Positions 4,691 to 46,673 of a stretch of DNA of 64,000 nucleotides are shown here, one piece after another. Below the pieces are notes generated by a model. It was not told the DNA's origin. It saw only the letters and a list, made by a program, of their open reading frames with translations, and ran no database searches. Source of the stretch: an uncultured Chloroflexia bacterium (GTDB taxonomy: Bacteria; Chloroflexota; Limnocylindria; Limnocylindrales; CSP1-4); assembly GCA_963703575.1 (NCBI GenBank), contig CAVPEU010000026.1, positions 65,850 through 129,849 on the forward strand. The letters are read 5' to 3'. The position numbers and the translations under genes are program-made. Within the stretch, counting starts at the first letter, position 1. Every line of letters starts with the position of its first letter.

Positions 4691-4691
4691 G

Positions 4692-10859: not shown

Positions 10860-10985
10860 CGGCCGGTGGCGGCCGCGCGGACCGGCGGCCGCGTGACGGC
10901 CGGTGCCGTGGTGCGGACCGGCGGCCGCGCGAGATGCGGGTCAGCGCGGAGATGCGGGTCAGCGCGGAGATCCCGGTCAGCGCGG
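10860..10985. repeat. Tandem repeats 3' of hbd: an approximately 36 bp unit x2, then an 18 bp unit (GATGCGGGTCAGCGCGGA) x3
   Basis: Read directly from the sequence. The last copy overlaps the hbd stop codon. Confidence 0.75.
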
Positions 10986-12826: not shown

Positions 12827-12836
12827 GTTACGCGCG

Positions 12837-13241
12837 CTACTCGCGCGGCTTCGCGTTCGCCCGGATGAACTCGGCGACCTCGCGGATCGTCGTTCCCGGC
12901 CCGAACACCCCCGCCACGCCCGCAGCCTTGAGCGGCTCGACGTCATCGTCCGGGATGATCCCGCCGACGGTCACCAGGACGTCGTTCAGGCCTCGCTCGC
13001 GTAGCTGCGCGCACACCCGGGGCACGAGCGTCATGTGGGCGCCCGACAGGATCGACAGGCCCACCACGTCGACGTCCTCCTGGAGCGCCGCGGTCACGAT
13101 CATCTCGGGTGTCTGGCGAAGGCCCGTGTACACGACCTCGAAGCCCTCGTCGCGGAGGCCGCGCGCGAGCACCTTGGCGCCGCGATCGTGGCCGTCGAGG
13201 CCGGGCTTCGCGATCAGGACCTTGAGCGGTCGATCGGTCAT
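12837..13241 (-). CDS. B12-binding small subunit of a split acyl-CoA mutase (IcmB/HcmB/MCM C-terminal-domain-like)
   Basis: [49 protein letters not shown] carries the DxHxxG cobalamin-binding motif. Confidence 0.8.
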
Positions 13242-13326
13242 GCGCCGATCGTACATCGAGCCCGGGGTCGTGGAGACCCCGGGCTCGAAGGGTTGCGCGT
13301 TCACCCGGCCGATGCCGGGCGCTGAC

Positions 13327-14442
13327 CTACCAGGCGATCCGGAGCACCTGGCCCTGGTGCGGGAAGACGCCGAAGTTCGAGACGTACGCGGCACCGTCGG
13401 GACCGACCGCGACGCCGCCGGGCGCGACCAGGCCGTCCGTCAGCAGCGTGTGCTGCGTCCCGTCCTCCGCGACGCGGACCAGGCGGCCGGTCGGGTCACC
13501 CGACAGCAGGCTGTTGGCCGCGATCTCCAGCACCAGAAGGCTGCCGTCCCGCGCGAAGGCGAGGTCGATGATGTTCGTGAACCCTGTCGCGAACACCTCG
13601 GGCGCATGCCCGGGGACGACCCGGAACACCTTCGCGGCACCCACCGGGAACGGAAACCCCGTCAGCTCGCCCACGTACCAGGCGCCGTCGGGACCCCGGA
13701 CGACCGAGTTCGGGACGGCCTGCATCGGGATCATCGTCCCGGCCGGCAGCCCGAGGAACGCGGGGGCGTCCACCATCGTGTCGGGGAAGACCGCCAGCGT
13801 GGACACGTGCCGGTTGGGCGTCACCCACAGCAGCGCGTTCGCGCCCGCATCGGCGACGGCCACGCCCTGCGGCGAGCCGGCCGCCGAGTAGGGGTTGGTA
13901 TCGTAGGCGCCGCCGTCCGGGTTTGCCAGGCGCTCGTACGCCGACACGTCTGCCCAGCGCGCCCACGCACCGGTGCGCAGGTTCGCGCGGACCAGCCACC
14001 CGGCCGCCTGCACCTCGGCGGGCAGTCCCGCCCGGACGTCAGGATCCGCGCCGAGGTTGATCGGCACGTAGGCGTTGCCGAGGCCACGGAACGTGACATC
14101 GCTGGGCCCGCCGGCCGAGAAGCCGGCGGGGTCGGCCGCGGACGGCAACCCGGTGACGACCCGGCGCTGCGATCCGGCACTGATGCGGGTGATCGCACCA
14201 CTCAGGCCGAAGCATTGCTGGCCTTCGGGGCCCTGCCGGCACGCGAGGTCGCCCCCGACCCCCGCCTCCGCGACATACAGGGCACCGTCCGGACCGAACG
14301 CCAGGCCGCGCGGGTTGTCGAGGCCGCTGGCAACAACCTGGACCGATGGTCCGGCCGCGCTGACTGGTACGGCCGCGATCGCCAGTGCCATGAGGGCGCT
14401 GGCAAGCGCGGCGAAAGCTGGATGCCTGGGACGCAGCGGCAC
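13327..14442 (-). CDS. Secreted ScyD/ScyE-like beta-propeller protein
   Basis: A signal peptide ([26 protein letters not shown]) is followed by [21 protein letters not shown] repeats. The GTG start at 14442 has an AGGAGG site 5 nt upstream. Confidence 0.55.
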
Positions 14443-14646
14443 CGTGTTCCTCCTGAGCTCCGGGACGGGCGGGGCTCGCCATTGGCTCGACGCGACCCGA
14501 GCGATCCGGGTTGTGGGTCGCGCGTCAACGCCTCCCGTCGGGGAACGCGGCGGAGTATGCGGGATCGGGTGATGCTGCGCCCACGCAGACCACGTGGTGC
14601 AACGGAGTCCGGTGCGCGGACGCACCGATCGCCGGCTGCGCCCGCG

Positions 14647-15330
14647 TCAGGCGCCCGGCGCCGGCCGCCCGATGTGCGCGAAGAACTCCGCGCGGGTCTT
14701 GTCGTTGCGCCGGAACAGCCCCAGCACCGCGGCGGTCGTCATCACCGTGCCCGGCTTGCGGACCCCGCGCATCGCCGCGCACAGGTGCGTCGCCTCGAGC
14801 ACGACGCCGACCCCCTTGGGCGCCAGGCGCTCCATCAGGAAGACCGCCACCTGCTGGGTCATCCGCTCCTGCACCTGGAGCCGCCGCGCGTACATCTCCA
14901 CGATCCGCGGGATCTTGGACAGCCCGATCACCCGCCCGTCCGGCACGTAGGCGACGTGGGCGTTGCCGAAGAACGGGAGCATGTGGTGCTCGCACAGCGA
15001 GTAGAACGGGATGTCCTTGACGACCACCATCTCCGAGTAGTTCACGTCGAACACGGCGTGATTGATCAGGCGGTCGGGGTCCACGTGGTACCCGGCCGTC
15101 AGCTCCTGGTACATCCGGTGCATCCGGTCCGGTGTCGCACGCAGCCCGTCCCGGCTCGGGTCCTCGCCGATCTCGACCAGGATCTGGCGCACGGCCGTCT
15201 CGATCCTGCCGTTCGTGCCGGCGCGGGGCGGCGACGGGACGGTCTCCTCGTCGCCGATCTCGTTCTCGATCTCCTCGACGATGAGGCGCACGTGATCGGG
15301 GAGGTCGCGGTTCTCGGGTCGATCGGTCAT
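14647..15330 (-). CDS. folE: GTP cyclohydrolase I
   Basis: [43 protein letters not shown] and CEHHM are FolE active-site signatures. Confidence 0.9.
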
Positions 15331-15369
15331 CGTCGGGCGATGGTAGCGCGGGCGCGGGCGTGAGGTCCC

Positions 15370-15575
15370 GACGTGAGGCGCCGGGCGCGAGGCGCGGGCG
15401 ACTGGCTGCCGCCGGACGTGAGGCGCCGGGCGCGAGGCGCGGGCGACTGGCTGCCGCCGGACGTGAGGCGCCGGGCGCGAGGCGCGGGCGACTGGCTGCC
15501 GCCGACACGCTGCCCCGACACGCTGCGCCGACACGCTGCCGCCGACGCGCTGCCGCTGCCGACACGCTGCCAACA
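15370..15575. repeat. Perfect 45 bp x3 tandem repeat (15370-15504), then about 5 copies of a degenerate 12-13 bp unit (ACACGCTGCCGCCG)
   Basis: The block begins 40 bp upstream of the folE ATG. The 45-mers are identical and in frame with folE, encoding [15 protein letters not shown] x3. Confidence 0.85.
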
Positions 15576-15813
15576 CCTTCATGCCATGCGCTCCCCGGAC
15601 GGGCACTCGCCAGCGATTCCGGGGTGCCCCGCGCTGTGGGCCTGACGTTCGTCCACGAGGCGGGCATTACACGACGTTCAAGTCCGGTCCGGATGCCTGG
15701 CGAGGCGCAAGCCGACCTCGACGGTGGCGAGTGCCCGCGTGGCGAGCACATGGCACGCGCACACCGCACGATCGGCGATCCCGTCCTGCCCCGGCTCGTG
15801 CGGCCCCGCACCG

Positions 15814-16785
15814 TCAGGGGCCGGCCGGCTCCAGGATCGCGGCGGCCACCTCGGCGGGGCGGTAGCGCATGAGGTTGTGGGCATCGAACGGGAAGCCGGC
15901 CGCGCGGAGCGGCGGGCGGCCTGCCGTCCCGCGCGCCGCCGCCGTCCGTCGAAGCTCGTCCATTCGAGCCTCCGCATCACCGGCCCCGAGCGCGACCAGG
16001 GCCGTCACCGGGGCCGCCACCGCCGCCACGACGACCGACGGCTGGTACGCGAACATCGTCCGGACCATCTGCTCCACCACGAACGGCCGCACCGCGCGCA
16101 CGACGTGCCCGGCGGCGGTCTCGACCACCGAATCCCGCGCGGACCGCTCCTGGTCCGCGTCCCAGGTGGTCGGATCGAAGTCGCGGCGGTCGGCGAGGTA
16201 GGCCGCCATCGAGCGCATCACCTCCGGTGGCTCGTCGAGGCCGCGCAGGAACTCGCCCACGTCCTGGTCGGTCGTGACCTCGAGCCGCTCCCAGCCTCCG
16301 TCCACGAGGACCAGGCCCGCGCACCGGGAGCCCAGCCGCGCGGCCGCTGCCGCGGCGACGGTCCCCCCGAACCCGTGGCCGGCCACCGTGACCGGAGCGC
16401 CCTGCTCGACGAGCAGCCCCGACCCCTCGGCCACGGCGATCACATCGGCCGCCAGGGTGTCGAGGTCGTAGCCATCCATGGGCGCGTCCGACAGGCCCTG
16501 GCCGCGCAGGTCGGCGACGACCGTCCGCCGGGCGTGGACCAGCCGGCGCGCCACCGGTGTCCAGCTGCTCGCCGGCTGGAGCAGCCCCGGCACGAGGAGC
16601 ACGCCGCCGCTGCCGGGGCCGGCCGCCGGATCGCTCCAGTCGAGGAAGTGGAGCCGCACGTCCGCGTCGGCGACGACCATGAAGCCCTGGGGCACGGCTC
16701 CCGGATCCGGAACCGGGGCGGCGGACGGGTCCGGCGACCACGGGCGGACGATCTCGCCCGGATCGACGCCAGGAGGCACGGTCAT
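15814..16785 (-). CDS. Alpha/beta-fold hydrolase
   Basis: A GHGFGG nucleophile elbow sits in a typical hydrolase context. The start is MTVPPGVDPG. Confidence 0.7.
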   Translation of the reverse strand: MTVPPGVDPGEIVRPWSPDPSAAPVPDPGAVPQGFMVVADADVRLHFLDWSDPAAGPGSGGVLLVPGLLQPASSWTPVARRLVHARRTVVADLRGQGLSDAPMDGYDLDTLAADVIAVAEGSGLLVEQGAPVTVAGHGFGGTVAAAAAARLGSRCAGLVLVDGGWERLEVTTDQDVGEFLRGLDEPPEVMRSMAAYLADRRDFDPTTWDADQERSARDSVVETAAGHVVRAVRPFVVEQMVRTMFAYQPSVVVAAVAAPVTALVALGAGDAEARMDELRRTAAARGTAGRPPLRAAGFPFDAHNLMRYRPAEVAAAILEPAGP

Positions 16786-16806
16786 CGCCGCTAGGATACG
16801 GGCGCC

Positions 16807-17226
16807 ATGACCAAGCGCCGCCGTGGGTCCAGGTTCGCCGACCGACGGCCCCGCGCCGCCCGACACGAGCGCTTCGACCGCCTCGTGGATCGCGCGGTCG
16901 CGGGCATTCCCTCCCCGTTCCGGGCGGCGCTCGACGAGATCGCGCTGGTCATCGCGGACGAGCCGACTCGCGAGCAGCGCCGCGAGAACGGCCTCGGCCC
17001 CGACGAGATGCTGTACGGCCTGTACGAGGGGATCCCGCGGACCGAGTGGGGTGCGGACTGGGTCCCGATCCCGACCCGCATCGTCATCTTCCGGTTGCCG
17101 CTGGAGGAGGACTTCCCGGATCCCGACGACCTCGCCGACGAGGTCCGGATCACCATCCTCCACGAGCTCGCGCACCACCTGGGCATCGACGACGAGGGCC
17201 ACCTGGCGGACCTCGGGATCGATTGA
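16807..17226 (+). CDS. Zinc metallopeptidase family protein (zincin-like small protein)
   Basis: It contains a C-terminal HELAHHLGIDDE (HExxH) motif. It is divergently transcribed from the hydrolase. Confidence 0.7.
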   Translation: MTKRRRGSRFADRRPRAARHERFDRLVDRAVAGIPSPFRAALDEIALVIADEPTREQRRENGLGPDEMLYGLYEGIPRTEWGADWVPIPTRIVIFRLPLEEDFPDPDDLADEVRITILHELAHHLGIDDEGHLADLGID

Positions 17227-17349
17227 ACCGGTGCGGCTCCGGTAAACCCGCGCGGCGCCGGCGAGCGGCGCCCGGGGCCTGACGGGCGGCCACGCGCATC
17301 GCGCCCGGGCAAGCGGCGCCCGGGCCGGGCGAGCGGCGCCCGGGCCTGC

Positions 17350-18564
17350 CTACGCCTGGACCGGCAGCGAGAGGATCCCGCCCACCAGCGCGAGCAGCGC
17401 GATCGCCGCCCCGATCGCGAGCCCCGGCGTGACGAACGGATCCCACGCCCGGCGCACGGGAAGTGGCTCTCGGCGACCCAGCTCCAGGCCGCGCGTGTAG
17501 TGCGTCAGGGCCGCGAACGCGTAGACGGCGGGTGCCGCCGCGATCGCCTCCACCAGGAACGTGAGCGTGCCCAGCGCGAACACGAGCGCGGCGCCAACCG
17601 GCACCGCGAGCGCTGGCGGGACACCATGCTGCAGGCCGGCCCCGATCGCCACCCGGAACACGGTATCCAGCCCGACGCTGAGCCCGAGGACCACGATGAG
17701 CTGCGACAGCACCCCGAACAGCATCACCAGCACCGCCAGCGGGGGACGCGCCCCCACCAGGCGCAACGAGCGGCGGATGGCGTCCACGATCCCCACCTCG
17801 CCGATGACGATCCCGGCCGTCACGTACACGAAGGGCGCCCCCGCGAGAAGCCCGACGGCCAGCGAGATCCCGAAATCCACGGCCGCCACCGGCCCGATCA
17901 GGGCGTCCGCGACGGAGCTGGCCGCCAGCGTCGCGGACGAGGTGACGGTGCCGACCACCAGCTGGGCGCCGAGCACGCGCCAGAACCGTCGCCTCACGAC
18001 GGCGATCGACTCGCGGAGCCGGAGCGGCCGGCCCTCGGCGCGTCCACCGATGACCGCCGTGGCGAGCACGCGTGCATCCACGCTTGCCGCCAGGTAGCCC
18101 GGCACCGCGGGGAGCACCGCGAGCCCCAGCCAGCCCGCCCAGGCGCCGGGCTCCACGTTCGCCGCGAGCGCATCGTCGCCCACCGTCAGCAGGACCAGCC
18201 CGAACAGGATCGCGAGCGGACCGACCGTCAGCAGCATCACGAAGCCGATGTAGAAGGAGGCGGAACGCAGCCCGGCGTCGGTCCGGGTCAGCAGGTCCAG
18301 GGCGGTCGCGACCAGCCGGCGCGTGCCCAGCGGAATCGACAGGACAGCCTCGCTCACGATGGGCGCCGCGGTCGCGGCGGCACCCGACGACACGGGCGAC
18401 GAAGGAGGCAGCAACGGGCCCACGAACGTGCCGTCGAACACGCTTCGCACGGGCACGACCGGCGGCGCAGGCTGCGGAGGCTGCGACAACGGGACCGCGG
18501 GAGCCTCCGCGGCTGCCTCCGCGGCGGCCTCCGCGCGAGCCTCCGCCACATGCTCCCCGCTCAT
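17350..18564 (-). CDS. Polytopic membrane protein of unknown function
   Basis: About 8 predicted hydrophobic helices. The N-terminus is AEA-rich (AEARAEAAAEAAAEAPA). It overlaps the upstream threonine dehydratase gene by 4 nt. Confidence 0.5.
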   Translation of the reverse strand: MSGEHVAEARAEAAAEAAAEAPAVPLSQPPQPAPPVVPVRSVFDGTFVGPLLPPSSPVSSGAAATAAPIVSEAVLSIPLGTRRLVATALDLLTRTDAGLRSASFYIGFVMLLTVGPLAILFGLVLLTVGDDALAANVEPGAWAGWLGLAVLPAVPGYLAASVDARVLATAVIGGRAEGRPLRLRESIAVVRRRFWRVLGAQLVVGTVTSSATLAASSVADALIGPVAAVDFGISLAVGLLAGAPFVYVTAGIVIGEVGIVDAIRRSLRLVGARPPLAVLVMLFGVLSQLIVVLGLSVGLDTVFRVAIGAGLQHGVPPALAVPVGAALVFALGTLTFLVEAIAAAPAVYAFAALTHYTRGLELGRREPLPVRRAWDPFVTPGLAIGAAIALLALVGGILSLPVQA

Positions 18565-19678: not shown

Positions 19679-19975
19679 GTGATCGACACCTATCCGAGGT
19701 CCGAGGCCGAGCGCCAGCGGTCAGCCGCCGTCGCGCGTGCCCTCGGCGACCCGAAGCGCCTGTGCGTCCTCGAGTCCCTCGCCGGCGGCGAGGCGTCCGT
19801 GGGCGAGCTCGCGGCGCGGGTGAGCTGCCACGTGCCGAACATGAGCCAGCACCTCGCGGTGCTGCGCTCGGCCGGTCTCGTCACCGCCCGCCGGGATGGG
19901 AACACGGTCTACTACCGCCTCGCGGACCCCCGGGTCCTGGAGGCATACCAGCTACTTCAGACCATCGCCCGCTGA
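19679..19975 (+). CDS. ArsR/SmtB-family transcriptional regulator
   Basis: LADPKRLCVLESLAGGEASVGELAARVSCHVPNMSQHLAVLRSAGLV is a winged helix. Confidence 0.85.
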   Translation: MIDTYPRSEAERQRSAAVARALGDPKRLCVLESLAGGEASVGELAARVSCHVPNMSQHLAVLRSAGLVTARRDGNTVYYRLADPRVLEAYQLLQTIAR

Positions 19976-20444: not shown

Positions 20445-20873
20445 TCAGTGGCTTCGATCCCCGCCGGCGGCACGCCGATGCGCGAACCGCACCCAGGCCT
20501 CGGCCCGATCCAGCGCGAACCGGTCCGTCACGGCGGGGCTGAACGTGACCCAGCCGGCACCACGCGACGAGGGCCGCGTGTCCGGGGTGGCGAGGGCCGC
20601 CCTGGCCACGGAGCCTTCGAGCGCGACGTCCAGCGTCTCATCACCCAGGATCGCGAACACGCGACCACCGACGCCGAGCATCTCCCGGCCGCCGTCCCGC
20701 GTCCGCGCGACGCCCTCCAGCTCCTCGATCACCGCGCCGACGCGCTCGTCCAGCGACTCGTCGGCCGCCGCCGCGGCGGCTGCGGCACCGGCGGCCGCCT
20801 CGATCTCCTCCAGCGGCAAGTCGTCGTCCTCGTCCTCCGGCTCGAGCCCGTGTCCGTTGCGCTCGTCCGTCAT
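20445..20873 (-). CDS. Hypothetical protein with an acidic N-terminus and a TfoX-N-like C-terminal domain
   Basis: The N-terminus reads EPEDEDDDLPLEEIEAAAG followed by A10. The C-terminus reads GGRVFAILGDETLDVAL...GWVTFSP. Confidence 0.4.
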   Translation of the reverse strand: MTDERNGHGLEPEDEDDDLPLEEIEAAAGAAAAAAAADESLDERVGAVIEELEGVARTRDGGREMLGVGGRVFAILGDETLDVALEGSVARAALATPDTRPSSRGAGWVTFSPAVTDRFALDRAEAWVRFAHRRAAGGDRSH

Positions 20874-36080: not shown

Positions 36081-37385
36081 GTGGACACCATCGACCCCTC
36101 CCCCGACGCCCTCGACCTCGCCGCGCTCGCGGAGCCCAACATGTCGCCGGTCCTCGGCCGATACATGGATCGCAGCTGGTCCCACGGGATCGGCCACCGC
36201 CTGTACGACACCGCCGGCCGCGAGTACCTGGACTTCGCCAACGGCATCGCCGTGACGGCCCTCGGGCACACCCATCCGCGGGTGACCGCGGCGATCCATG
36301 CCCAGGTGGACCGGCTGATCGGGCCGGTGCACGCGATCGGATTCGCGGAGTCCACCGTGACGCTCGGGCGGATGCTGGCCGAGACGTTCCCCGACCCGCT
36401 CGACACGGTGCTGTTCCTGAACTCCGGGTCGGAGGCCATCGATGGCGCGATCAAGCTCGCCCGCCGCGTCACCGGACGGCCGGCGATCATCGCGTTCCGG
36501 GGCGCCTTCCACGGACGGACCATCGGCGCGACCAGCGTGACCAGCTCGAACCTCAACTACCGTGCCGGGTACGAGCCGCTGCTGCCGGGCGTCTACCACC
36601 TGCCCTACCCGGCCGCGTACCGCGACTTCGGCGGGAACGAGGAAGCGGCGACGCACGCCTGCCTCGAGGCCATCCGGGACCTGCTCCACACCGTCGTGTC
36701 CCCGTCGGAGGTGGCGGCCGTGCTCATCGAGGCGGTCCAGGGCGAGGGTGGCTACTACCCCGCGCCCGCCCCGTTCCTGCGCTCGCTCCGGGAGCTGTGC
36801 GACGAGCACGGCATCCTGCTGGTCGCGGACGAGGTCCAGTCCGGCTTCGGACGGACCGGCGAGATGTGGGCCTTCGAGCACGCCGGGATCGTGCCGGACG
36901 TGGTGTGCGTCGCCAAGGCCATCGCCAACGGGCTTCCCCTGTCCGCGATCGTGACGCGACGCGAGCTCCAGGAGCGCTGGGGCCGCGGCGCCCACGGGAC
37001 GACGTACGGCGGGAACCCCGTCGCCTGCGCGGCCGGGGTCGCGGTCCTGGAGACCATCCGGGACGAGGGCCTGGTGGCCAACGCGCGTGCCCGGGGCGCG
37101 GAGCTGTCCGGCGGCCTGCGGGAGCTGATGGCGGAGTTCCCCGGCATCGGGGACGTGCGCGGACCCGGCCTGATGATCGGGGTGGAGTTCGTGAAGGACC
37201 GCGTGACCCGGGAGCCGGACGGGGCGACGTCCGAGGCCGTCGCGGCCCGGGCAGGCGACGCCGGCCTGCTGCTCCTCAACTGCGGCATCCACCACGAGGT
37301 CATCCGGTGGATCCCGCCGCTGGACGTGACGGTGCCCGAGATCGAGGAGGCCCTGCGGGTGTTCGAGGGAGCCCTGCGGGGCTGA
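36081..37385 (+). CDS. Class III (omega-) aminotransferase, GabT/ArgD-like
   Basis: LLVADEVQSGFGRTG and a PLP-Lys within TYGGNP are present. Confidence 0.85.
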   Translation: MDTIDPSPDALDLAALAEPNMSPVLGRYMDRSWSHGIGHRLYDTAGREYLDFANGIAVTALGHTHPRVTAAIHAQVDRLIGPVHAIGFAESTVTLGRMLAETFPDPLDTVLFLNSGSEAIDGAIKLARRVTGRPAIIAFRGAFHGRTIGATSVTSSNLNYRAGYEPLLPGVYHLPYPAAYRDFGGNEEAATHACLEAIRDLLHTVVSPSEVAAVLIEAVQGEGGYYPAPAPFLRSLRELCDEHGILLVADEVQSGFGRTGEMWAFEHAGIVPDVVCVAKAIANGLPLSAIVTRRELQERWGRGAHGTTYGGNPVACAAGVAVLETIRDEGLVANARARGAELSGGLRELMAEFPGIGDVRGPGLMIGVEFVKDRVTREPDGATSEAVAARAGDAGLLLLNCGIHHEVIRWIPPLDVTVPEIEEALRVFEGALRG

Positions 37386-37488: not shown

Positions 37489-37686
37489 TCAGCGGTTGCG
37501 GGCCAGGAAGTTCAGCACGTCCTCGAGGCGAAAGCGACGGTCGCCGCGCTTGCACACGCGGTAGAACGGGAGCTCGCCGCGGTCACCGAGACGCTTCACG
37601 GTGTTGACGTGGAGGTGGAGCATCTCGGCCACCTCGCTCGCGGTGAGCATCGGTCCGAGATCGTTGATCGCCATTGACGCCATCTG
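37489..37686 (-). CDS. Excisionase-family helix-turn-helix DNA-binding protein
   Basis: MLTASEVAEMLHLHVNTVKRLGDRGELPF. The start is uncertain (alternative Met at 37734). Confidence 0.5.
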   Translation of the reverse strand, partial: QMASMAINDLGPMLTASEVAEMLHLHVNTVKRLGDRGELPFYRVCKRGDRRFRLEDVLNFLARNR

Positions 37687-38199
37687 GGGCTTGCCTCTTC
37701 TGACACTGGGAGCTGCCCTGTCCGGGATGGTCACTGCGGTGCGGTCCGGCTGGCTGCTGGGTAGAGTGTCCCGGTGAGGGGCGCGCGAAACAAGCCGTAC
37801 TCTCGTCCAGCCGGTGGTACCAAACCGCCCGTCAGCACCGGGTCATCAGCACCGGGTCATCCGGCCCGCATGCCGGCCCTTGACCAAATCTTGAGCAAGG
37901 CTTGCCTCTTCCCGCGTCGGCTGGCGGGTACATTTCGTCGAACATCCTCAAGTCAGCCGAACCGCTCCAGGAGCATGCGTCCCGATGCCCACGAACGAGT
38001 CCGCCGACCAGGGCCGTGCACGTCGACACGCCCGCCGGCATCCACGACCGCGAACGCCAACCCGACCTTGATCATGGTGGGACCCGGCAGGCGTCGACCC
38101 GGACACGCCGCGACTCGACGCTTCCACGCCCCGCGCGCGACGGCCGGGTCACGGCCGCGCCCCATCGTCACCCCACCCATCCCCTGATCGGAGGGCACC

Positions 38200-38667
38200 A
38201 TGCGTCTCGCTCGACTCGCCCCGCTCGCCATCGTCGCCGCCCTTGCCGCCGCCTGCTCCGGCGGCGGCGGAACCCCTGCCCCGGCAACCAGCGCTCCATC
38301 CGCCTCGGCCGAAGCGTCGGCAGCCACCACCCGCATCGAGGTCAGGCTCACCGACGCGCTGAAGATCGAGCCGGCGGCCATGACCGTGCCCGCAGGGCAG
38401 CCCATCACGTTCGTCGTCACCAACGCCGGCACGGGTCTTCACGAGTTCGTGCTCGGCGACGAGGCCGCCCAGGCCGATCACGAGCAGGAGATGGCGTCGG
38501 CGGGCGGGATGAGCATGCCGAACGACGAGGCGATGGCCATCGGCGTCGAGCCTGGCACGACCAGGGAGTTGACCGTCACGTTCGACGAGCCGGGCACGAT
38601 CCTCGCCGGCTGCCACGTCGCCGGGCATTACCCGGCCGGCATGAAGGCGACCATCGAGATCGAGTGA
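38200..38667 (+). CDS. Cupredoxin (type-1 blue copper) lipoprotein
   Basis: The lipobox is LAIVAALAAACSGG. The ligand set is H(LHEF)...C-x4-H-x4-M (GCHVAGHYPAGM). Confidence 0.7.
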   Translation: MRLARLAPLAIVAALAAACSGGGGTPAPATSAPSASAEASAATTRIEVRLTDALKIEPAAMTVPAGQPITFVVTNAGTGLHEFVLGDEAAQADHEQEMASAGGMSMPNDEAMAIGVEPGTTRELTVTFDEPGTILAGCHVAGHYPAGMKATIEIE

Positions 38668-39827
38668 CCAGGCTCCCCGGAATCCTTCCAGGCCTGGTTG
38701 GCCAGCCCGTGACGACCCTGCCGCCGGTACTCGGCGAACCCGTCGCCGTCCGCGTCGCCGTAGGTCAGCGCCCAGTCGAGGCAGCGCTCGACGGCGGGCA
38801 CCAGCCGTTCGACGGCATCGGGCGCCGTTCCCCAGCGATGGACCTCGGCCACGAGCGTGACGAACAACAGCGTGGCATCGATCGTGCCGTAATAGGCCCG
38901 ACCGAGGAACCCGCGCCGGACGGCGAGCGGCCCGGCTCGCAGCTCGTGGAGGATCTTGCCCGGCTCCTCGGCGCTGGCGCGGTCAACCCGGCTGCCCTGA
39001 TAGGCGGCCAGCACCTCGAGGCTGTCGGCGGCGAGCTCCGGCGCGAACGGCAGGGCCATGTACGCGGTGATCAGGGAGTCGCGTCCGAACAGCGCCATGA
39101 ACCACGGGATCCCGGCTGCCACGACAATCCGACTGGACCCGTCCGGGCTGGCCACCCGGAGCGCGCCCAGATCGGCGAGTGACCGCCGGTAGAGATGGCC
39201 GAGGGCGTCGTCGTTCGTGTCCATGGTCGGGAAGCCCGCCTGCCAGCGGCGTGACCGCTCGGCCATCGGGTTCTCGAGGAACCCGAATGCGTCACACCGG
39301 CAACGCGGTTCGTATGCGACGTCGTCGTGGACCGGGACGATGTCGATGCAGGTCCGCCACGTCTGGCGGATCGCCGCGCCGACCCTCCGGCGCGGTCCTC
39401 ACGCGACCAGCCGCTTGACCTCGAACAGATCGGCGAAGTCGGCGTTCAGCAGCACCCGAAGGTCCACCGCTGCCGGGTCGGAGCCGTGGTTCTCGACGAC
39501 GAGGTCCTCGTGGACGCCGTCGCCGATGAAGCGGCGTCGCTCGATGACGATCGGCGCCGCGTCCCCGTCCCCGCCCGCCGGTCGCAGGTAGATCCGCGCG
39601 GAGAACGCGTCGACCGTCCCGCCGGCGAGCAGGTCCGGCGGGCGCCCGTTGACCTCCAGCCGGAACCCGCTCAGGAACCGCGTGTCGCGGTAGAACAGCC
39701 CGTCGCCCGTGCCCGGTCGGACGTCGCCGAGCGGGTCGGCGATCATGAACGCGTCGCCCTCGACCACGGTGATCCCGGGCAAGCCCGGCAGGCGAGGCAC
39801 GTTGCCCCACGGATCGACCTGCGTCAT
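38628..39827 (-). pseudogene. Amylo-alpha-1,6-glucosidase (glycogen-debranching enzyme family) remnant: frameshifted and 3'-truncated
   Basis: The N-terminal-domain fragment 39399-39827 (GITVVEGDAFMIADPLGDV...) ends in a stop. The middle fragment 38628-39266 is in another frame and stops after the GLANQAWKDSGE motif, with about 250 expected C-terminal residues missing. The 3' end overlaps the convergent cupredoxin gene. Confidence 0.6.
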
Positions 39828-39837
39828 CGCAGCTCGA

Positions 39838-40620
39838 TCACGGGCGTCCGAGCGGCGGCCGGCCGGGCTTCGAAGAACGATCGGGCCGCGAAACGTCGTC
39901 ACGGCGCGATGTCGTCACGGCGCGACGCCGGCCCACCGTCGCGACGCCGTCCACCGTCGCCACGATCTCGCGCCAGACTCCCTCGCGGCGGACCGCGCTC
40001 AACGCCAGTCCGGCGGCCGTGACGTTCGCCTCGGTCCGCCGGTTCAGCTCGGGTCCCGCCAGACGTCGGGTCAGGGGGCTCACCAGGTCGGCCAGCCAGC
40101 CGCCCAGCCGATGGCTGGGCCGGACATGCTCGAGGAGCAGGACCTGGCCATCACGCTTGACCACCCGCCGCACCTCGGCGAGGGCGCGGACCGGATCGGC
40201 CACCGAGCAGAAGACGCACGCGGCCGCGACCGTATCGAACGTCTCGTCGGCGTACGGCAGCGCGTGGACGTCGGCGCGTTCGAGGCGGACGAGGAGGCCG
40301 AGCCGCGCGGCGCGCCGGCCGGCTCGCTCGAGCATGCGCCCGGACACGTCGATCCCGGTCAGGTTGACCCCCGGCGGGTAGTGCTCGAGGTTGCGCCCGG
40401 TGCCGATCCCCACCTCGAGGACCTCGCCGCGCGCCTGCGACAGGAGCCGGTGCCGGCGCTGGGCGCCACCAGCCCGCTCCATCGGGGCGTCGTACAGATC
40501 GTAGACGGCCGCGAGGCGCTCGTAGCGGCGGGTCACCCGGTCCTGCTCTGCGCTCCACGGACCGATCGCACGCGATCCGGTCCGCTGGTCTCCTGCGAGT
40601 GGAGCCTCAGGGTCGGGCAT
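39838..40620 (-). CDS. Class I SAM-dependent methyltransferase (UbiE/COQ5-like)
   Basis: VLEVGIGTGRNL is motif I. The post-I motif reads LPYADETFDTV. Confidence 0.7.
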   Translation of the reverse strand: MPDPEAPLAGDQRTGSRAIGPWSAEQDRVTRRYERLAAVYDLYDAPMERAGGAQRRHRLLSQARGEVLEVGIGTGRNLEHYPPGVNLTGIDVSGRMLERAGRRAARLGLLVRLERADVHALPYADETFDTVAAACVFCSVADPVRALAEVRRVVKRDGQVLLLEHVRPSHRLGGWLADLVSPLTRRLAGPELNRRTEANVTAAGLALSAVRREGVWREIVATVDGVATVGRRRAVTTSRRDDVSRPDRSSKPGRPPLGRP

Positions 40621-40801
40621 TTGTGACCGGATCCGGGAGGCGCGCAAAGAACGGACGGTCCTCGGCGAACTGCTCGTGGCAGGCGACGCTGCAGAAGGAG
40701 AACGTGCGTCCCTCGTAGTCCTCGGTGACAGCCACGTCCTCGGGCCGAATCCGCATCCCGCAGACCACGTCGACGATCAAGCCGGCCTTCCCACGGTTCA
40801 T
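40607..40801 (-). CDS. YHS/TRASH-domain metal-binding protein
   Basis: VVCGMRIRPEDVAVTEDYEGRTFSFCSVACHEQF. It lies downstream of the ATPase on the same strand. Confidence 0.6.
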   Translation of the reverse strand: MNRGKAGLIVDVVCGMRIRPEDVAVTEDYEGRTFSFCSVACHEQFAEDRPFFARLPDPVTNARP

Positions 40802-40964
40802 GTTGGTGTCCTCGTGCATCAGGTGGACGACGGGGAGCATCCGGGCCGGGGCTGAGTCACGGCTGAGGGCAGGCTGAGAATGGGAACCGGGCAGGCTGAG
40901 GAGCTCACGCTGCTGCACCTCGTCCTGCCCGAAGGCCACAGGCGCGCCCAGGCGAACGGGTCGC

Positions 40965-43148
40965 TCACTGCGGTCGCACCGCCGCCGTCTGCGGTCTCCG
41001 CTCGCCTGCGGGCTGCTCGGACGGGGCCCGGCGCAGGAGCCGCAGCCCGTTGGCGATGATGAGGATGGCGGTCCCCTCGTTGAGCAGGAGCCCCTCGGTG
41101 AGCGACAGCCAGCCCGCCAACGCGCCGGCGACCAGGAGGACGACCGTCGCGAGCGAGAGGGCGATGTTCTGGCGGATGTTGGCGAGCGTGCGGCGGGCGA
41201 GCCGGACCGCGGCCGGAAGCGCGGCAAGGTTGTCCGCCATGAGCGCCACATCGGCCGTTTCGAGTGCGACATCGGTGCCGGCGGCGCCCATCGCCACGCC
41301 GACGTCGGCGAGCGCCATCGACGGGGCGTCGTTCACGCCGTCTCCGACCATCGCGATCGTGCCGTGCTGGCGGCGGAGGGCCTCGACTGCGGCCGCCTTG
41401 TTCTCCGGCAGCAGCCCCGACCGCCACTCGGTGATGCCGACCGCCCGGGCGATCGCCTCGGCCGTCCGCTCGTTGTCGCCAGTCAGCATGACCAGCCGCT
41501 CGACGCCGAGCGAGCGCAGCTCGGCGATCACGTCTCCGGCTCCGTCGCGGAGCGCATCGGCGACCGCCAACAGGCCGATCGGTCCGTCCTCGGCGGCGAG
41601 GAGGACGGCCGTCTTGCCCTCCGCCTCGAGTCGGGCCAGCTCCTCCTGGACGCCATCGGGCAGGCTCGCGGCCCGCTCGCCAACCGGCCGCCCGACGAAC
41701 AGGCGCCGGCCGCCGAGGCTGGCCTCGACCCCGACGCCGGGGGTCGCCCGCAGCTCGGAGCCGGCCTCCAGCGGCAGCCCGCGCTGGCGGGCGGCGTCCA
41801 TGATCGCCGCCGCCAGGGGATGCTCGCTCGCAGCCTCGACCCCGGCCGCCAGGCGGAGGATCTCGTCGGGTGATCGGCCGTCGAGCGGCACGATGTCGGT
41901 GAGCGCTGGCTGCCCACGGGTGAGCGTGCCGGTCTTGTCGAAGGCCACGGCCCGCACGGCGGCGAGCCGCTCGAGGTAGACGCCGCCCTTGACGAGGATC
42001 CCGTCGCGCGCCGCCCGCGAGATCGCCGCCACGACCGAGACCGGAACCGAGATGACGAGCGCGCACGAGCACGACACGGTGAGGACCACGAGGCCGCGAT
42101 ACAGCCATTCGCGCAGGTCGGCGCCAAGCAGCGGCGGCACGACCGCGACGACCGCGGCGAGCACGAACATGGCCGGGGTGTAGACGGCGCCGAAGCGATC
42201 GGCGAACCGCTCGGCGCGACCCTTGGCCGCCTGGGCCTCCTCGACCTGGCGGATGATGCGGACGAGGGTCGTGTCCGCCCACTCCCTGGTCACTTCGATC
42301 TCGAGGGCGCCCGCGCCGTTGACGGTGCCGCCGAAGACGGCCGTCCCGGGCGCCACTTCGACCGGGATCGACTCGCCGGTGATCGGGCTCTGGTCGACCG
42401 AGGAAGTCCCCGACACGACCCGCCCGTCGGTCGGCAGGCGCTCACCCGGGCGCACGACGACGAGATCAGCCGGGACGAGCGTCTCGACCGGGACGAGCGT
42501 CGGCAGCGACCCCGGCGGGCCCTTGAGCAGGGCGACCGGCGGGGCGAGCGCCATCAGGGCGCGGATCGAGCCCCGGGCCCGGTCACTGACGTAGTCTTCG
42601 AGGACCTCGCCGAGCGAGAAGACGACGATGAGCGTCGCCGCCTCGCCGATGACCCCCAGGCCCACCGCCCCGAGCGTGGCCACGACCAGGAGGGTGGTGA
42701 TCGTCAGTCGCCGATCGCGGAGCGCCTGGAGCGCGCTCCGGAGCGGGTGGACGCCGGCCACCACGATCGTGGCCGTATACGGGACCAGGGCGACCTGCGG
42801 CAGGCCGAGCAGGTACTCGAATGCGAGCCCGACGAGGAGCAGCAGCGCTCCGGCGGCCAGGGCGAGGGACTTGGGCTGGCGCCACCAGGCCGGTTCGCCC
42901 TCCGCCGGCCGGCGGGCATCGGCCGGGGCGAGGCCAAGGCCGATCCGCCGGGCGGCTCGCTCGATCTGCTGGTCGGTGACCTGGCCGTCGTGCTCGACGC
43001 CGACGATCCCGGCGGCCTCGAAGACCTCGACCGACCGAACACCCGGGACCCGCAAGAGCGTCCCGGCCACGTCGCCCGCGCAGTCGAGGCACGAGCCGTC
43101 GACGACGCGATAGCGCCGGCGGGCGAGCGTAGACACCGGGGCACTCAT
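40965..43148 (-). CDS. Heavy-metal translocating P1B-type ATPase with atypical transmembrane metal-binding motifs
   Basis: An N-terminal CxxC domain (SCLDCAG), DKTGTLT, SEHPL and GDGVNDAP are present. TM6 reads SCSCAL in place of CPC, and TM8 reads NEGT in place of HEG. Confidence 0.9.
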
Positions 43149-43456
43149 GCCGCAGCGACCTTGCCGATGACCTCGGAGAGGTCGATCTCGTCGACGATCG
43201 CGGTCAGCTCGTCGCAGTAGTCGCACAGGCCCGGGCAGGCCTGGACGCGAGCCGTGAGCTCGCGCGTCAGCTGCTCGCGGGCGCTCTCCTCCAGGGCAAG
43301 CCGCAGCGCCCGGTCGGTCCCGGCGCGCATCGCCCGGAGCTGGATGACGACGTCCACGCTCGACGATCCGGTGTCGAGCATCCGCCCGAGGCCCTCCGCC
43401 TGCCCGCGGAGGTAGTTGACCTGGTTGCGCAGTTTGCGAGGCGGTTGCTGGGCCAT
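43145..43456 (-). CDS. CsoR/RcnR-family (DUF156) metal-sensing repressor-like protein, atypical
   Basis: [43 protein letters not shown] fits the CsoR helical scaffold. The stop overlaps the ATPase start (ATGA). The canonical Cys/His sensing positions appear replaced, and the C-terminus reads [11 protein letters not shown]. Confidence 0.75.
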
Positions 43457-43508
43457 GGGTGAGGCTCCGTTTCTCCTGTTTCGACACCCCCTGGGGGTGT
43501 CTACGTGA

Positions 43509-43883
43509 AGCGTACCAGACGAGCCCCACTCGCGGAACCGACCGCAACCCGCGCCGATCTCGATCTTCGCGGGCTTCCTCGGCGTGGGTCCCGGTTTCCT
43601 CCTGATGCCGACCCTCACCCTGATCGGGTACAGCGCCCGCCTCGCCGCCGCGACGAACTCGGTGGCGGTCACGCTGCCGTCGTTCTCCGCCTTCATCAGC
43701 CACCTGCCGACGGCCACCTTCGACTGGCCGCTCGTGATCGTGACGTCGATCGCGGCGGTCATCGGCTCCTGGTTCGGCGCCCGCTTCACGGCCGGTCGGG
43801 TCAAGTCTGCCGCCCTGTCGCGCATCTTCGCGATCGCGCTCGTCGCGCTCGCCGTGCAGCGCGCCTGGATCCTCGTCTCATGA
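43509..43883 (+). CDS. TauE/SafE (DUF81)-family membrane protein, half-size or 5'-truncated
   Basis: [18 protein letters not shown] is the GxGGG repeat motif. Only about 125 aa lie in frame after a stop at 43506, and the first possible start is GTG 43584. It is divergent from the CsoR-like gene. Confidence 0.4.
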
Positions 43884-43917
43884 CGACCGTCCGCCCGAAG
43901 TACGCCGCCGCACCGCC

Positions 43918-44262
43918 ATGAGGAGACCTTCCATGCGAACTGAGCTTCCGGTCCTCCAGGACCTGCGGATGAGCCTCCCCGCCCCCGACGTGAACGACGC
44001 GACAGCGACCGCTTCGCTCCTGGCCGACCCGATCCGGGCCAGCATCGTGCGGATGCTCCGCGACGGCCCCGTCTGCGTGTGCGAGATGGCCGCCGCCCTC
44101 GGCGCGCGCGAAAACAACGTCAGCAACCATCTCGCCCGGCTCCGCGACGCGGGCCTCGTGCGCGCGAGCCGGTACGGCGCGGACTCACGGCGCGCCTACT
44201 ACGAGCGCGACGATGCGGCATGTCGCCGGGCGCTCGAAGCGCTGGGAGACTTGCTCGGATAG
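43918..44262 (+). CDS. ArsR/SmtB-family metalloregulator
   Basis: LADPIRASIVRMLRDGPVCVCEMAAALGARENNVSNHLARLRDAGLV. Confidence 0.8.
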   Translation: MRRPSMRTELPVLQDLRMSLPAPDVNDATATASLLADPIRASIVRMLRDGPVCVCEMAAALGARENNVSNHLARLRDAGLVRASRYGADSRRAYYERDDAACRRALEALGDLLG

Positions 44263-44319
44263 CGACGCCTGCACCCCGCGTCCCTGCAGGTTCATCGCCG
44301 CCCAACACGAGGAGAGCGC

Positions 44320-44556
44320 ATGAAGAAGATCGAGGTCCTGGGGCCAGGCTGCCACAACTGCCATCTCCTGGAGGAGGCCGCGAGGGAGGCCGTTGCGATG
44401 GCGGGGGTCGAGGCAGAGATCCTGCACGTCACCGATGTCGCCCGCATCGCGAGCTATGGCGTGATGCGCACGCCCGGCCTGGTCATCGACGGCAAGGTGG
44501 TCAGCGCGGGGCGCATCCCCTCCGCAGGCGACATCGTGGTCTGGCTGACCGAGTAG
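44320..44556 (+). CDS. Small thioredoxin-fold protein (redox-active disulfide protein 2-like)
   Basis: GPGCHNCH is a CxxC motif, in a roughly 78 aa Trx-like fold. Confidence 0.7.
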   Translation: MKKIEVLGPGCHNCHLLEEAAREAVAMAGVEAEILHVTDVARIASYGVMRTPGLVIDGKVVSAGRIPSAGDIVVWLTE

Positions 44557-44631
44557 CACGGGAGGTTCGGGCCGGACGCCGTACAGCTGCCTCAGGTCCA
44601 TCAGTGATCGCCCGATTCGCGGCCGTCACCG

Positions 44632-44707
44632 TAGGAGGTGTGGCGCCCCCGACAGGAATCGAACCTGTGACCTACCGCTTAGAAGGCGGCTGCTCTATCC
44701 GCTGAGC
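44632..44707 (-). tRNA. tRNA-Arg (anticodon TCT)
   Basis: The reverse complement GCCCCCGTAGCTCAGCGGATAGAGCAGCCGCCTTCTAAGCGGTAGGTCACAGGTTCGATTCCTGTCGGGGGCGCCA forms a cloverleaf with complementary acceptor stems and T-arm GGTTCGATTCC. Confidence 0.8.
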
Positions 44708-44831
44708 TACGGGGGCGTCGGTTACCGGCTCAGTCTACGCAGGCGCCCGGGTATCTGACCGCCGGCCGGTTCGATCCCGGCTCTCGACCAATCCGCGACG
44801 GGCGACCGGATTCGCCACCCATCCCGGGCAG

Positions 44832-45101
44832 CTAATGCCGAATCGAGCTGCTCGGTGCTCCGCCCTGCGTGCTGGCGGCCAGCATCTGGGCCAGGCCCTC
44901 CGCCAGCTTCTGCGCAAGCTCGCGGCTGAACCGCAGCCGTGCGATGGTCGCGCTCGGATCTTCGTGCGGTCCGGGCTCGCCGGTCGGCTGACTCAGCGCG
45001 AGGGTCACGGTCACGCCGAAGGGCCCAGCGGTGATGCTGAAGCCATCGGCATAGATGTCAGGATGATCGGACACGGCACATCTCCTGTCGGGCAGGTCCA
45101 T
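44832..45101 (-). CDS. DUF3467-like small protein
   Basis: IYADGFSITAGPFGVTVTL...ATIARLRFSRELAQKLAEGLAQMLAA. Confidence 0.5.
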   Translation of the reverse strand: MDLPDRRCAVSDHPDIYADGFSITAGPFGVTVTLALSQPTGEPGPHEDPSATIARLRFSRELAQKLAEGLAQMLAASTQGGAPSSSIRH

Positions 45102-45278
45102 CCGCGAGTGTGAGCGCCTGGCGGATCAGCGGTGGACACGGTGCACCCCCGCATTCTCCGCCCGCCGAGGACGACCGAATGGGGCATTCGACCCACTCCC
45201 CCGTCCCGTGGGGCGCGTGATACGCTTCGCGCCCTTCGTGCGGTGCGCCCAGTCCCGCACGTGACGTCGAGCCCGGGA

Positions 45279-46673
45279 ATGCCCGACCAGACCAGACGAC
45301 CGAATCCGGGGCAGCTCGCCCTCGAGCTGCCGAGCACGCTTCCCAGCCTCGGGATGGAGCTGGAGTGGAAGGCGCAGGCCCGCCTGTGGGGCCCGAGCCT
45401 CCACCCGATGTGCTCCTACCTCGCGAGCTTCCCCGCCGCGCTCGCGCATGCTTTCATCGCCCGCTACAGCCGATCGGGCGACGTGGTCCTGGACCCGTTC
45501 TCCGGCCGCGGCACGACGCCGCTCCAGGCCGTCGCGGAGGGCCGCATCGGCGTCGGCAACGACCTCAACCCGTTCGCCCACCTCCTCACGGCGGCCAAGG
45601 TCCAGCCGGCCACGCCCGCGGAGACGCGCACCCGGCTCGCCGCGCTCCGCCTCGCCTGGGCCGCCGACGCCGCCGCCTGGCTCGCCCTCGGCGAGCGCGT
45701 GGTCGCGCGCCCGCGTCACCCGTCGGCACGCGTGCCCGCGCCCGGCAGCGGCGACGGCCCGGACGCCCGCACCGAGACGGTCCCGGACGAGGTGGCCCTC
45801 GCGTTCCACCCGCGGACCCTGGGCCAGCTGCTGTTCGTGCGGTCCCGGCTGCGGCTGGACGATCGCACGGACCGGTTCCTGGCCGGGGCGGTGGCCGGGA
45901 TCCTGCACGGGAAGACGCCGTCCTACCTGTCCACCGTGATGCCCAACACGTTCAGCATGGCCCCACGCTACGTCCGGGATTTCGTGGCCCGGACCGGCTT
46001 CGAGTCCCCGGAGCGCGACGTGTTCGACGCCCTGTCCGCCAAGTTGGACCGGCTCTACCGCCAGGCTCTGCCCGCGACGGGCGGGCTCGCGCTCCTGGGC
46101 GACGCGCGGACGGCCGGACGCCGGGCGCGCACGGCCCTGCGGGCGCGCGGCCTCCCCGACCGCGCCCGGCTCATCGTCACCTCACCGCCGTACCTGCGCG
46201 TGCTCAAGTACGGCTATTACAACTGGCTGCGGACATGGTTCCTGGGCTTCGACGCGCAGGCCATCGATACCGCCCTCGACGACGCGCACCAGCGCGAGCC
46301 CTACCTCGTGTTCCTGCGCGAGGTCCTGGCCGACCTCCGGCCGGCGCTCACGGACGACGGGATCGCGGTGCTCGTGATCGGCGATGTCGAGACCGACCGG
46401 GGCAAGCCGTCGGACATCGGCCTCGACCTGGCCGAGCGCGTGTGGGAGGAGGCCGCCTACCCCGCCGGGTACCGGCTGGCGGGCCTGGTGCGTGACGAGA
46501 TCGCCGCCAACCGCAAGATGACCCGCCTGTGGGGCGAGCAGGCCGGGCGGGCGACCAAGACCGATCGCATCCTGGTGCTGGGCGCGACCGAGGCCGGGCG
46601 CCGGCGGGCGCTTGCCGCCGCCGACCTGCCGATCGACTGGTCGTGGCCGCCGACGAGGCTTCGCGCGATCTGA
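45279..46673 (+). CDS. DNA (N4-cytosine/N6-adenine) methyltransferase, no cognate restriction gene apparent
   Basis: The AdoMet motif I block SGDVVLDPFSGRGTTPLQAVAEGRIGVGNDLNPFAHL lies near the N-terminus. The catalytic motif IV LIVTSPPY lies about 250 aa downstream, so the motif order is permuted relative to typical PF01555 beta-class enzymes. The start is uncertain (Met at 45132/45279/45354). Confidence 0.7.
   Translation: MPDQTRRPNPGQLALELPSTLPSLGMELEWKAQARLWGPSLHPMCSYLASFPAALAHAFIARYSRSGDVVLDPFSGRGTTPLQAVAEGRIGVGNDLNPFAHLLTAAKVQPATPAETRTRLAALRLAWAADAAAWLALGERVVARPRHPSARVPAPGSGDGPDARTETVPDEVALAFHPRTLGQLLFVRSRLRLDDRTDRFLAGAVAGILHGKTPSYLSTVMPNTFSMAPRYVRDFVARTGFESPERDVFDALSAKLDRLYRQALPATGGLALLGDARTAGRRARTALRARGLPDRARLIVTSPPYLRVLKYGYYNWLRTWFLGFDAQAIDTALDDAHQREPYLVFLREVLADLRPALTDDGIAVLVIGDVETDRGKPSDIGLDLAERVWEEAAYPAGYRLAGLVRDEIAANRKMTRLWGEQAGRATKTDRILVLGATEAGRRRALAAADLPIDWSWPPTRLRAI

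Follow-up and report, generated by a model that had tools for sequence, protein, structure and literature searches.

We analyzed the variable gene segment at positions 37823–44640 (~6.8 kb) of a 64,000-nucleotide stretch of contig CAVPEU010000026.1 from an uncultured Chloroflexia bacterium, the whole stretch being termed the window hereafter. The segment lies between a gene of the HTH_17 family and an intact tRNA-Arg(TCT), and its cargo falls into three modules, labelled M1, M2 and M3. Gene families were assigned with Pfam and NCBIfam, and the tRNA with ARAGORN and Rfam, yielding the following features of the segment and its immediate borders:

37489–37734, minus strand: HTH_17/'excise' gene, BldC-like, core left border and not cargo (Pfam HTH_17 and TIGR01764 above cut-off)
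37735–37822, no strand: conserved block upstream of the HTH gene, last bases homologous to relatives (blastn)
37823–38199, no strand: unique non-coding DNA, left edge of the proposed island (no homology to relatives)
38200–38667, plus strand: CopI-like cupredoxin lipoprotein, M1 (Pfam Cupredoxin_1, Copper-bind)
38673–39827, minus strand: glycogen-debranching-type glycosidase pseudogene, termed GDE', with GDE_N_bis and MGH1-like glycoside hydrolase parts (Pfam; tblastn of the intact homolog P0244)
39838–40620, minus strand: class I S-adenosylmethionine-dependent methyltransferase, last intact gene of the putative efflux operon (Pfam Methyltransf_11/25)
40607–40801, minus strand: small YHS/TRASH metal-binding protein (Pfam YHS above cut-off)
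40965–43148, minus strand: P1B-type ATPase with CSC motif, assigned to P1B-7 (Pfam; TIGR01525; motif census; structure–sequence alignments)
43145–43456, minus strand: CsoR/RcnR-family repressor (Pfam, fold)
43557–43883 (start approximate), plus strand: TauE/SafE permease remnant, 5'-truncated, termed TauE' (Pfam)
43918–44262, plus strand: ArsR/SmtB metalloregulator with a CVC motif, Cys53 and Cys55 (Pfam, NCBIfam)
44320–44556, plus strand: MTH895/ArsE-family thioredoxin-like protein (Thioredoxin_3) with a CHNC motif (Pfam, NCBIfam)
44641–44716, minus strand: tRNA-Arg(TCT), intact (ARAGORN; Rfam 72.8 bits)
44742–45174, no strand: further small segment peculiar to the window, located 5' of the tRNA (absent from relatives)
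45132–46673, plus strand: core flank gene encoding an N6/N4 DNA methyltransferase, followed by TPM and PspA genes (conserved in relatives)

M1 (37823–38672) thus comprises the unique non-coding DNA and the cupredoxin gene. M2 extends from 38673 to ~43500 entirely on the minus strand, in the order csoR-like, ATPase, yhs, methyltransferase and GDE', and M3 (~43557–44640) contains TauE', arsR and trx. An earlier reading of the window, termed the original prediction here, had arranged these genes in this order from the HTH gene to the tRNA, and the assignments bear out both list and order with the corrections given below.

Using the aminotransferase at 36081–37385 as a query, we retrieved 80 loci from the genome collection, of which the closest came from uncultured Chloroflexota, part of them labelled Limnocylindria, at 85–89% identity. 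The genes of the window were placed on the loci of the relatives (L001–L053) by tblastn, and 25 relatives carry both flanks. The relatives have a common backbone, consisting of sigma70, acyl-CoA dehydrogenase (ACAD), aminotransferase and HTH_17 genes on one side and the DNA methyltransferase, TPM and PspA genes on the other, with the tRNA-Arg(TCT) kept on the same strand. Two intervals of this backbone vary, namely interval A from the HTH gene to the tRNA 3' end and interval B from the tRNA 5' end to the methyltransferase. Interval A is empty (320–500 bp) at seven loci (L003, L004, L014, L016, L022, L033, L051) and spans 0.6–9 kb elsewhere. At nine loci it holds a HoxEFUYH-like NiFe hydrogenase operon together with HypA (L002, L007–L010, L012, L013, L015, L053; e.g. 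L009:12118–17914), L005 and L002 carry an IS481 transposase, L011 a xanthine-dehydrogenase-type enzyme (XDH), and the remaining loci a luciferase-like monooxygenase, GH3, a two-component system and others. None of the nine cargo genes of the window was found in interval A of any of the 25 relatives with both flanks, and no remnant of the relatives' interval-A cargo was detected in the window. The gene order is therefore not conserved among relatives, so that the synteny comparison does not refute the original prediction, and the slot is essentially empty in L003 and L004. In a neighbor-joining tree on ACAD and aminotransferase, it is with these two empty-site loci, as well as with L011 and its different cargo, that the window clusters.

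Junctions were mapped by blastn of the window against L001–L053. On the left, nucleotide homology breaks at 37820–37831 in most relatives, and we set the junction at 37822/37823. The right junction at 44640/44641 is the exact 3' end of the tRNA-Arg, where homology to the relatives resumes. The absence of the cargo from 25 relatives and the start of the segment exactly at the tRNA 3' end together support horizontal acquisition into a tRNA-linked hotspot. We thus regard 37823–44640, with a probability of roughly 75%, as a lineage-specific, horizontally acquired and now immobile mosaic in a hypervariable slot 3' of the tRNA-Arg(TCT). The original prediction of a horizontally acquired island holds on these two grounds, whereas the clues given for it, namely an excisionase-family gene, a frameshift and copper cargo, hold up poorly.

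Vertical inheritance with differential loss, in which an ancestor had the metal genes and all sampled relatives lost or replaced them, appears improbable to us. It would accommodate the nearly host-like composition of the segment, the pseudogenes as signs of a decaying region and the distance of the sampled relatives (85–90% amino-acid identity). Yet 0/25 relatives keep any of the nine genes or a remnant at the locus, the sister lineages L003 and L004 are empty, the Hox-type operon common to nine relatives more plausibly represents an older state, and the csoR-like–ATPase module is found in unrelated neighbourhoods.

The tRNA-Arg is a recombination target in this lineage. In L004 a tyrosine recombinase (12154–13059) stands directly beside it, and >9 kb of unique sequence follows. 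In L013, direct repeats of the tRNA 5' half (18402–18479, 19836–19898) enclose an insert of 1.36 kb, and in L001 a 3' fragment of 48 nt (20558–20605) is all that is present of the tRNA. The HTH-side edge of the variable interval is usually marked in relatives by a conserved GC-rich hairpin element of ~70 nt. At least 23 relatives have it, 100–200 nt upstream of the HTH_17 gene and with the cargo beyond it (e.g. L004:11794–11868, minus strand; L009:11738–11809; L011:11717–11801). The element has an invariant core, GACGCATGG-TGTGCCCCCA-GCG, and an outer stem, GGGCCGGCG/CGCCGGCCC; RNAalifold predicted 21 pairs, five of them with compensatory changes. Rfam did not match the relatives' hairpin, and the tRNA was its only match in the window. 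The hairpin could be an RNA leader, a small RNA or a protein-binding site. It is missing from the window, where it would be expected near 37850–37950, indicating that the event that formed the left junction also deleted host DNA. Just past the left end of homology, at 37833–37860, we observed a perfect 14-nt tandem duplication (CAGCACCGGGTCAT ×2), which may be a scar of the junction or else an operator.

The acquisition would probably have drawn on other high-GC soil bacteria and proceeded in at least three pieces, M1, M2 and M3, which deletions would then have joined and trimmed, leaving two pseudogenes and removing the conserved 70-nt element. As the likeliest route we infer site-specific integration at the tRNA, as in the relatives, with later loss of the integrase and the distal attachment (att) site.

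Several findings weigh against this account and are gathered here. The att-like repeats of the tRNA that the original prediction had proposed to look for were not found: the best match of the tRNA ±40 nt to the whole window in blastn-short was ≤13 nt, which is at chance level. Scanning the region for direct and inverted repeats yielded neither repeats that bound the segment nor terminal inverted repeats. Among all open reading frames (ORFs) at 32.6–49.9 kb, which were screened by Pfam for recombinases, none encodes a tyrosine or serine recombinase in or beside the patch, in line with the missing integrase noted earlier. Some of the integrase-type events in the relatives are located 5' of the tRNA, opposite to the segment. 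The relatives are only 85–90% identical in housekeeping proteins, which limits how finely the timing and number of events can be resolved. A donor of the whole block was not found either, as neither the scan of metagenomes for the methyltransferase nor the contexts of the GDE homologs revealed an intact GDE–methyltransferase–YHS–ATPase–CsoR locus. All statements on function are predictions from family membership. Finally, GC-based measures show hardly any shift: neither GC content nor GC skew changes across the patch, and the corrected GC content at third codon positions (GC3) of the cargo is 0.83–0.94, about 0.90 compared with 0.92 for the backbone.

The GC content is ~73% throughout the window. 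The tetranucleotide distance of 37823–44640 to the remainder of the window is the highest of all 6.8-kb windows (0.0157; mean 0.0118, standard deviation 0.0014), a modest signal of ~2.8 standard deviations from sliding windows that overlap. As GC content, skew and corrected GC3 are almost those of the backbone, the segment would not stand out by composition alone. It probably came from donors of similar composition, and the contigs with the nearest homologs have 67–71% GC. A lower cargo GC3 (p = 0.017) obtained with over-extended ORF starts was rejected as an artefact, as it disappeared with corrected starts.

Flank-mediated replacement is a serious alternative, although we hold it to be clearly the less probable explanation. 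The segment would then have entered by homologous recombination in the conserved flanks after uptake from a related strain, without any integrase, as a 'replacement flexible genomic island'. Flanks of 75–97% nucleotide identity in all relatives around a wholly different interior are what such a process would leave, no integrase occurs among the 3'-side cargo of any relative, no att repeat is present in the window, and the host-like composition fits a closely related donor. Against this, we found no other genome with the window cargo between these flanks; the GDE' and TauE' scars and the loss of the hairpin need extra illegitimate events, and the break exactly at the tRNA 3' end, together with the integrase and att signatures of the relatives, points to site-specific events.

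The HTH_17 gene at the left border, which the original prediction had described as an excisionase-family gene, adjoins the aminotransferase in ~45 of 53 relatives at 76–97% identity, including those with an empty site. It scores 47.6 bits for HTH_17 (cut-off 27) and 38.9 for TIGR01764 'excise' (cut-off 28.8). An excisionase (Xis) travels with its element, whereas this gene is present where the cargo is absent. Its position beside the aminotransferase in ~45 relatives identifies it as a core gene and not an island excisionase, perhaps coding for a BldC-like regulator as judged from its sequence family. An intact mobilisable island, served by this adjacent protein and an integrase encoded elsewhere, would profit from the HTH_17/'excise' assignment at the border and from the abutment on the tRNA 3' end. 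We consider such an island very unlikely, as the HTH gene is kept in relatives with or without cargo, the segment has no direct repeats for recombination, the screened ORFs include no integrase within ~7 kb to either side, and the pseudogenes indicate long residence.

Independent contigs address the integrity of the assembly. L175 (Logan, run ERR12036780) is 100% identical to 37597–38674, across the left junction, and L176 from the same run is 99.9% identical to 42586–45581, across the joint between the csoR-like gene and TauE', the tRNA and the start of the methyltransferase. L092, from another assembly (GCA_040961035.1), matches 40910–44512 at 98.7% and likewise crosses the joint between the csoR-like gene and TauE'. 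Chimeric backbone junctions are thus very unlikely, since independent contigs span both. The joint between cupredoxin and GDE' (38673) and the region 38675–40909 are spanned by no independent contig, as L175 stops at 38674 and L092 starts at 40910. An assembly chimera, in which a foreign 6.8-kb fragment was mis-joined into the metagenome-assembled contig, is the least credible of the explanations considered. The metagenomic source and the termination of L175 right at the cupredoxin–GDE' junction would be in its favour, but the left and right junctions are crossed independently by L175 and L176, the junction between the csoR-like gene and TauE' is confirmed by L092, and both flanks are in proper syntenic order and orientation. 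That L175 ends exactly at this joint (38673/4) may be due to a branching assembly graph, arising from strain heterogeneity or from intact GDE genes in the same sample.

Both pseudogenes lie within the segment. Between 39827 and 38673, the intact homolog P0244 (723 aa) aligns to GDE' without a change of frame. The alignment is interrupted by a TGA at 39399–39401 and an internal deletion of ~45 codons, and it ends after residue 430/723. The proposed 3' truncation of the debranching gene is thereby confirmed. The frameshift is not, because both pieces share one frame and the lesion consists of the in-frame TGA and the deletion. Its supposed overlap with the cupredoxin gene applies to a 14-codon read-through tail, whereas the homology itself stops 5 nt past the cupredoxin stop. 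Intact GDE homologs have ~670–723 aa, a full-length ORF that GDE' does not retain. No relative has a GDE gene at the locus, so GDE' is not a native copy decaying in place, as its earlier description as a degraded housekeeping gene had implied. It stands in operon-like order directly downstream of the methyltransferase–YHS–ATPase genes inside the variable segment, and probably came in together with them. For TauE', described before as a half-gene, Pfam indeed covers only profile positions 136–236 of 237, and its first possible start is a GTG at 43584. The homology begins upstream of this first start codon, indicating a 5'-truncated remnant, and the TauE' junction is also present in L092 and L176.

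The closest GDE homologs (L086–L090, 79–83% identity; e.g. L086:5896–6678 and 10001–11524) sit behind LemA and are themselves split. A 3.4-kb insertion, which encodes a DUF4379-like protein of 631 aa along with two small ORFs, parts GDE_N_bis from the catalytic part; at least five contigs of separate sample origin have exactly this arrangement.

In M2, the stop codon of the csoR-like gene overlaps the start codon of the ATPase gene (ATGA), indicating translational coupling. The ATPase displays an N-terminal CLDC, a CSC motif in transmembrane helix 4 (TM4), NEGT in TM6 and DKTGT at residue 403, along with E1-E2 ATPase and HAD domains. It scores 588.9 against TIGR01525 (cut-off 346) and 514.7 against the ZntA equivalog (cut-off 1240). 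In the alignment to ZntA (4umv), its CSC stands opposite CPC, a T opposite K693 and an N opposite D714. Lacking both CPC and the conserved pair of Lys (TM5) and Asp (TM6), and with its low equivalog score, it falls outside P1B-2, the ZntA-type Zn/Cd/Pb pumps. In the alignment to sCoaT (P1B-4, 7qbz), CSC pairs with SPC, and HEGST is changed to NEGTA. A motif census showed CSC to be kept in 93/120 ATPase homologs, together with the N-terminal CLDC. CSC is the signature of the P1B-7 subgroup (Smith, Smith & Rosenzweig 2014, cited by PMC13460109, PMC7558416 and PMC4932525), whose members these reviews describe as uncharacterised and of unknown substrate. By its TM4 CSC motif and P1B core the ATPase is assigned to this subgroup, with which it also shares the N-terminal CxxC domain and from which no deviating feature was found. 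The P1B-ATPase of the original prediction is therefore present, but its copper label is doubtful, as a CSC in TM4 is not that of a typical copper pump.

The repressor is a bona fide member of the CsoR/RcnR family based on Pfam (PF02583, 37.7; cut-off 22.8) and fold: its AlphaFold (AF2) model has a confidence (pLDDT) of 84 and FrmR, InrS, CsoR and CstR as its top Foldseek matches, with weak E-values. Alignments to 2hh7 and 5fmn place Ser/Ser/Gln at the positions of Cys36/His61/Cys65 of M. tuberculosis CsoR and at the equivalent ligand positions of InrS. The family assignment made originally consequently stands, and its copper label is doubtful, since these Cu(I) ligands are missing. The protein instead contains an invariant C-terminal Cx3Cx2C motif at residues 74–81 (Cys74/Cys78/Cys81), which the AlphaFold model places at the turn between helices 33–73 and 78–90. 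A profile search of 1.84 billion representatives returned 116 relatives of the CsoR-like protein, among them 20 with Cx3Cx2C and others with CPGNC. The protein thus represents a small, uncharacterised subfamily.

Homologs of the M2 genes recur in differing neighbourhoods. The csoR-like–ATPase pair occurs with the same 4-nt overlap at 74–83% identity in unrelated contexts (L082, L083, L085), where its neighbours encode cupredoxin, SCO1, rhodanese, SHOCT, DUF302 and Nramp proteins, with a Replic_Relax gene in one contig. Methyltransferase homologs (52–67% identity) are located downstream of other P1B ATPases on metagenome contigs (L095, L100, L102, L104). ATPase homologs reside on plasmids of Micrococcus, Dietzia and Cellulosimicrobium, the one of M. 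luteus adjoining IS481 and IS3 transposases; the ATPase was the sole cargo gene matched in the plasmid search, at ~68% nucleotide identity. This recurrence indicates that M2 was built from modules moving between contexts.

Judging from the families, the CsoR-like protein would repress the operon as a tetramer until a thiophilic metal binds Cys74/Cys78/Cys81, and the CSC-motif ATPase would then export the bound metal from the cytoplasm. The YHS/TRASH protein, whose cysteines are Cys14 and Cys37-x3-Cys41, may serve as a chaperone, the CopI-like lipoprotein may handle copper outside the membrane, and the ArsR–thioredoxin pair may be a separate thiol- or metalloid-responsive remnant. The hints to the metal diverge, as the cupredoxin and SCO1 neighbours point to copper, whereas the sequence profiles point to Zn/Cd/Co pump families. 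We tentatively propose that the coupled Cx3Cx2C CsoR-like protein and P1B-7 ATPase form a dedicated sensor–pump pair with an effector unlike that of the CsoR/CopA, RcnR, InrS and ZntA systems, a possibility that we consider less likely than not. The effector could be a soft metal on three thiolates, or an Fe–S or redox signal. If so, the partners of the pair, YHS/TRASH protein, methyltransferase, cupredoxin and SCO1, would give a first handle on the P1B-7 substrate. More speculatively still, cassette capture at the hotspot might involve the core HTH_17 protein together with the conserved 70-nt hairpin.

The arrangement of M2 resembles the cso operon of M. tuberculosis (csoR–rv0968–ctpV) and other CsoR–CopA pairs in that a CsoR-family gene immediately precedes the gene of a P1B ATPase within one transcription unit, which also encodes a small extra protein. 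It differs in the Cx3Cx2C of the window repressor, which takes the place of Cys36/His61/Cys65, and in the pump, which has CSC and not CPC and is nearer to the Zn/Cd/Co pumps than to CopA. The cupredoxin of M1 has its lipobox cysteine at Cys19, putative type-1 copper ligands His81/Cys138/His143/Met148 and a Met/His-rich stretch at 94–112. It shares with CopI, a periplasmic cupredoxin of copper resistance, the cupredoxin fold, the His/Cys/His/Met ligands, the Met/His-rich stretch and an extracytoplasmic location. Unlike CopI it is a lipoprotein, and it scores far under the equivalog cut-offs of NF051440 (89.8 vs 280) and NF047895 (49.3 vs 200). Homology (at E > 1e-5) to the cupredoxins beside other csoR-like–ATPase modules was not detected.

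With integrase-mediated genomic islands inserted at tRNA 3' ends, such as metal-resistance or pathogenicity islands, the segment shares the abutment on an intact tRNA 3' end, the absence from close relatives, the accessory metal cargo and the pseudogenes, and its tRNA is accompanied by an integrase and att-type repeats in relatives. It departs from them in having no integrase or flanking direct repeat, an almost host-like composition and an 'excisionase' neighbour that belongs to the core. Flexible genomic islands, or hypervariable hotspots between core genes, are a concept from the comparative genomics of marine and soil bacteria. The locus matches them in offering one slot with unrelated gene sets per lineage between syntenic flanks, but here a tRNA end anchors the slot, and the locus bears deletion scars rather than the marks of a clean allelic replacement.

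Limnocylindria-like Chloroflexota are abundant in soil and fresh water, although the lineage is uncultured. As an island, the segment is ordinary and adds one more well-bounded case of gene flux at a tRNA hotspot in this group. Its metal biology is the more useful by-product, in the form of a compact, conserved Cx3Cx2C CsoR-like/P1B-7 pair in which pump and sensor come from poorly studied families. The slot itself, carrying a Hox-type operon in many relatives, bears on the variation of metabolic traits within the group.

Variability is not confined to the interval next to the tRNA 3' end. The second small segment at 44742–45174 is absent from all relatives, yet L176, an independent contig, has it too. 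An ORF of 89 aa lies within it (44832–45101, minus strand), with a lowish GC3 of 0.80 and no match to a Pfam family. In eight relatives (L001, L006, L018, L020, L030, L042, L047, L051), the short spacer that separates the aminotransferase from the HTH_17 gene is likewise enlarged by 1.4–7 kb, indicating that the neighbourhood has more than one variable point. In L001 this spacer (11303–18537) holds a GNAT/acyl-CoA-synthetase-like gene.

The operon in the Arg slot of nine relatives looks, by its domain composition, like an NAD-linked bidirectional NiFe hydrogenase, and its presence there in nine relatives suggests that hydrogen metabolism is a variable, hotspot-borne trait in the lineage. The window has another NiFe hydrogenase cluster at ~1564–5927, next to a tRNA-Lys(CTT) at 6184–6258, whose large subunit is ~33% identical to the Hox large subunit of the relatives (tblastn). 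Read from sequence alone, the cluster also seems to encode a maturation protease as well as a small subunit that bears a Tat-like signal. The hydrogenase of this genome thus seems to differ from the one in the Arg slot of its relatives.

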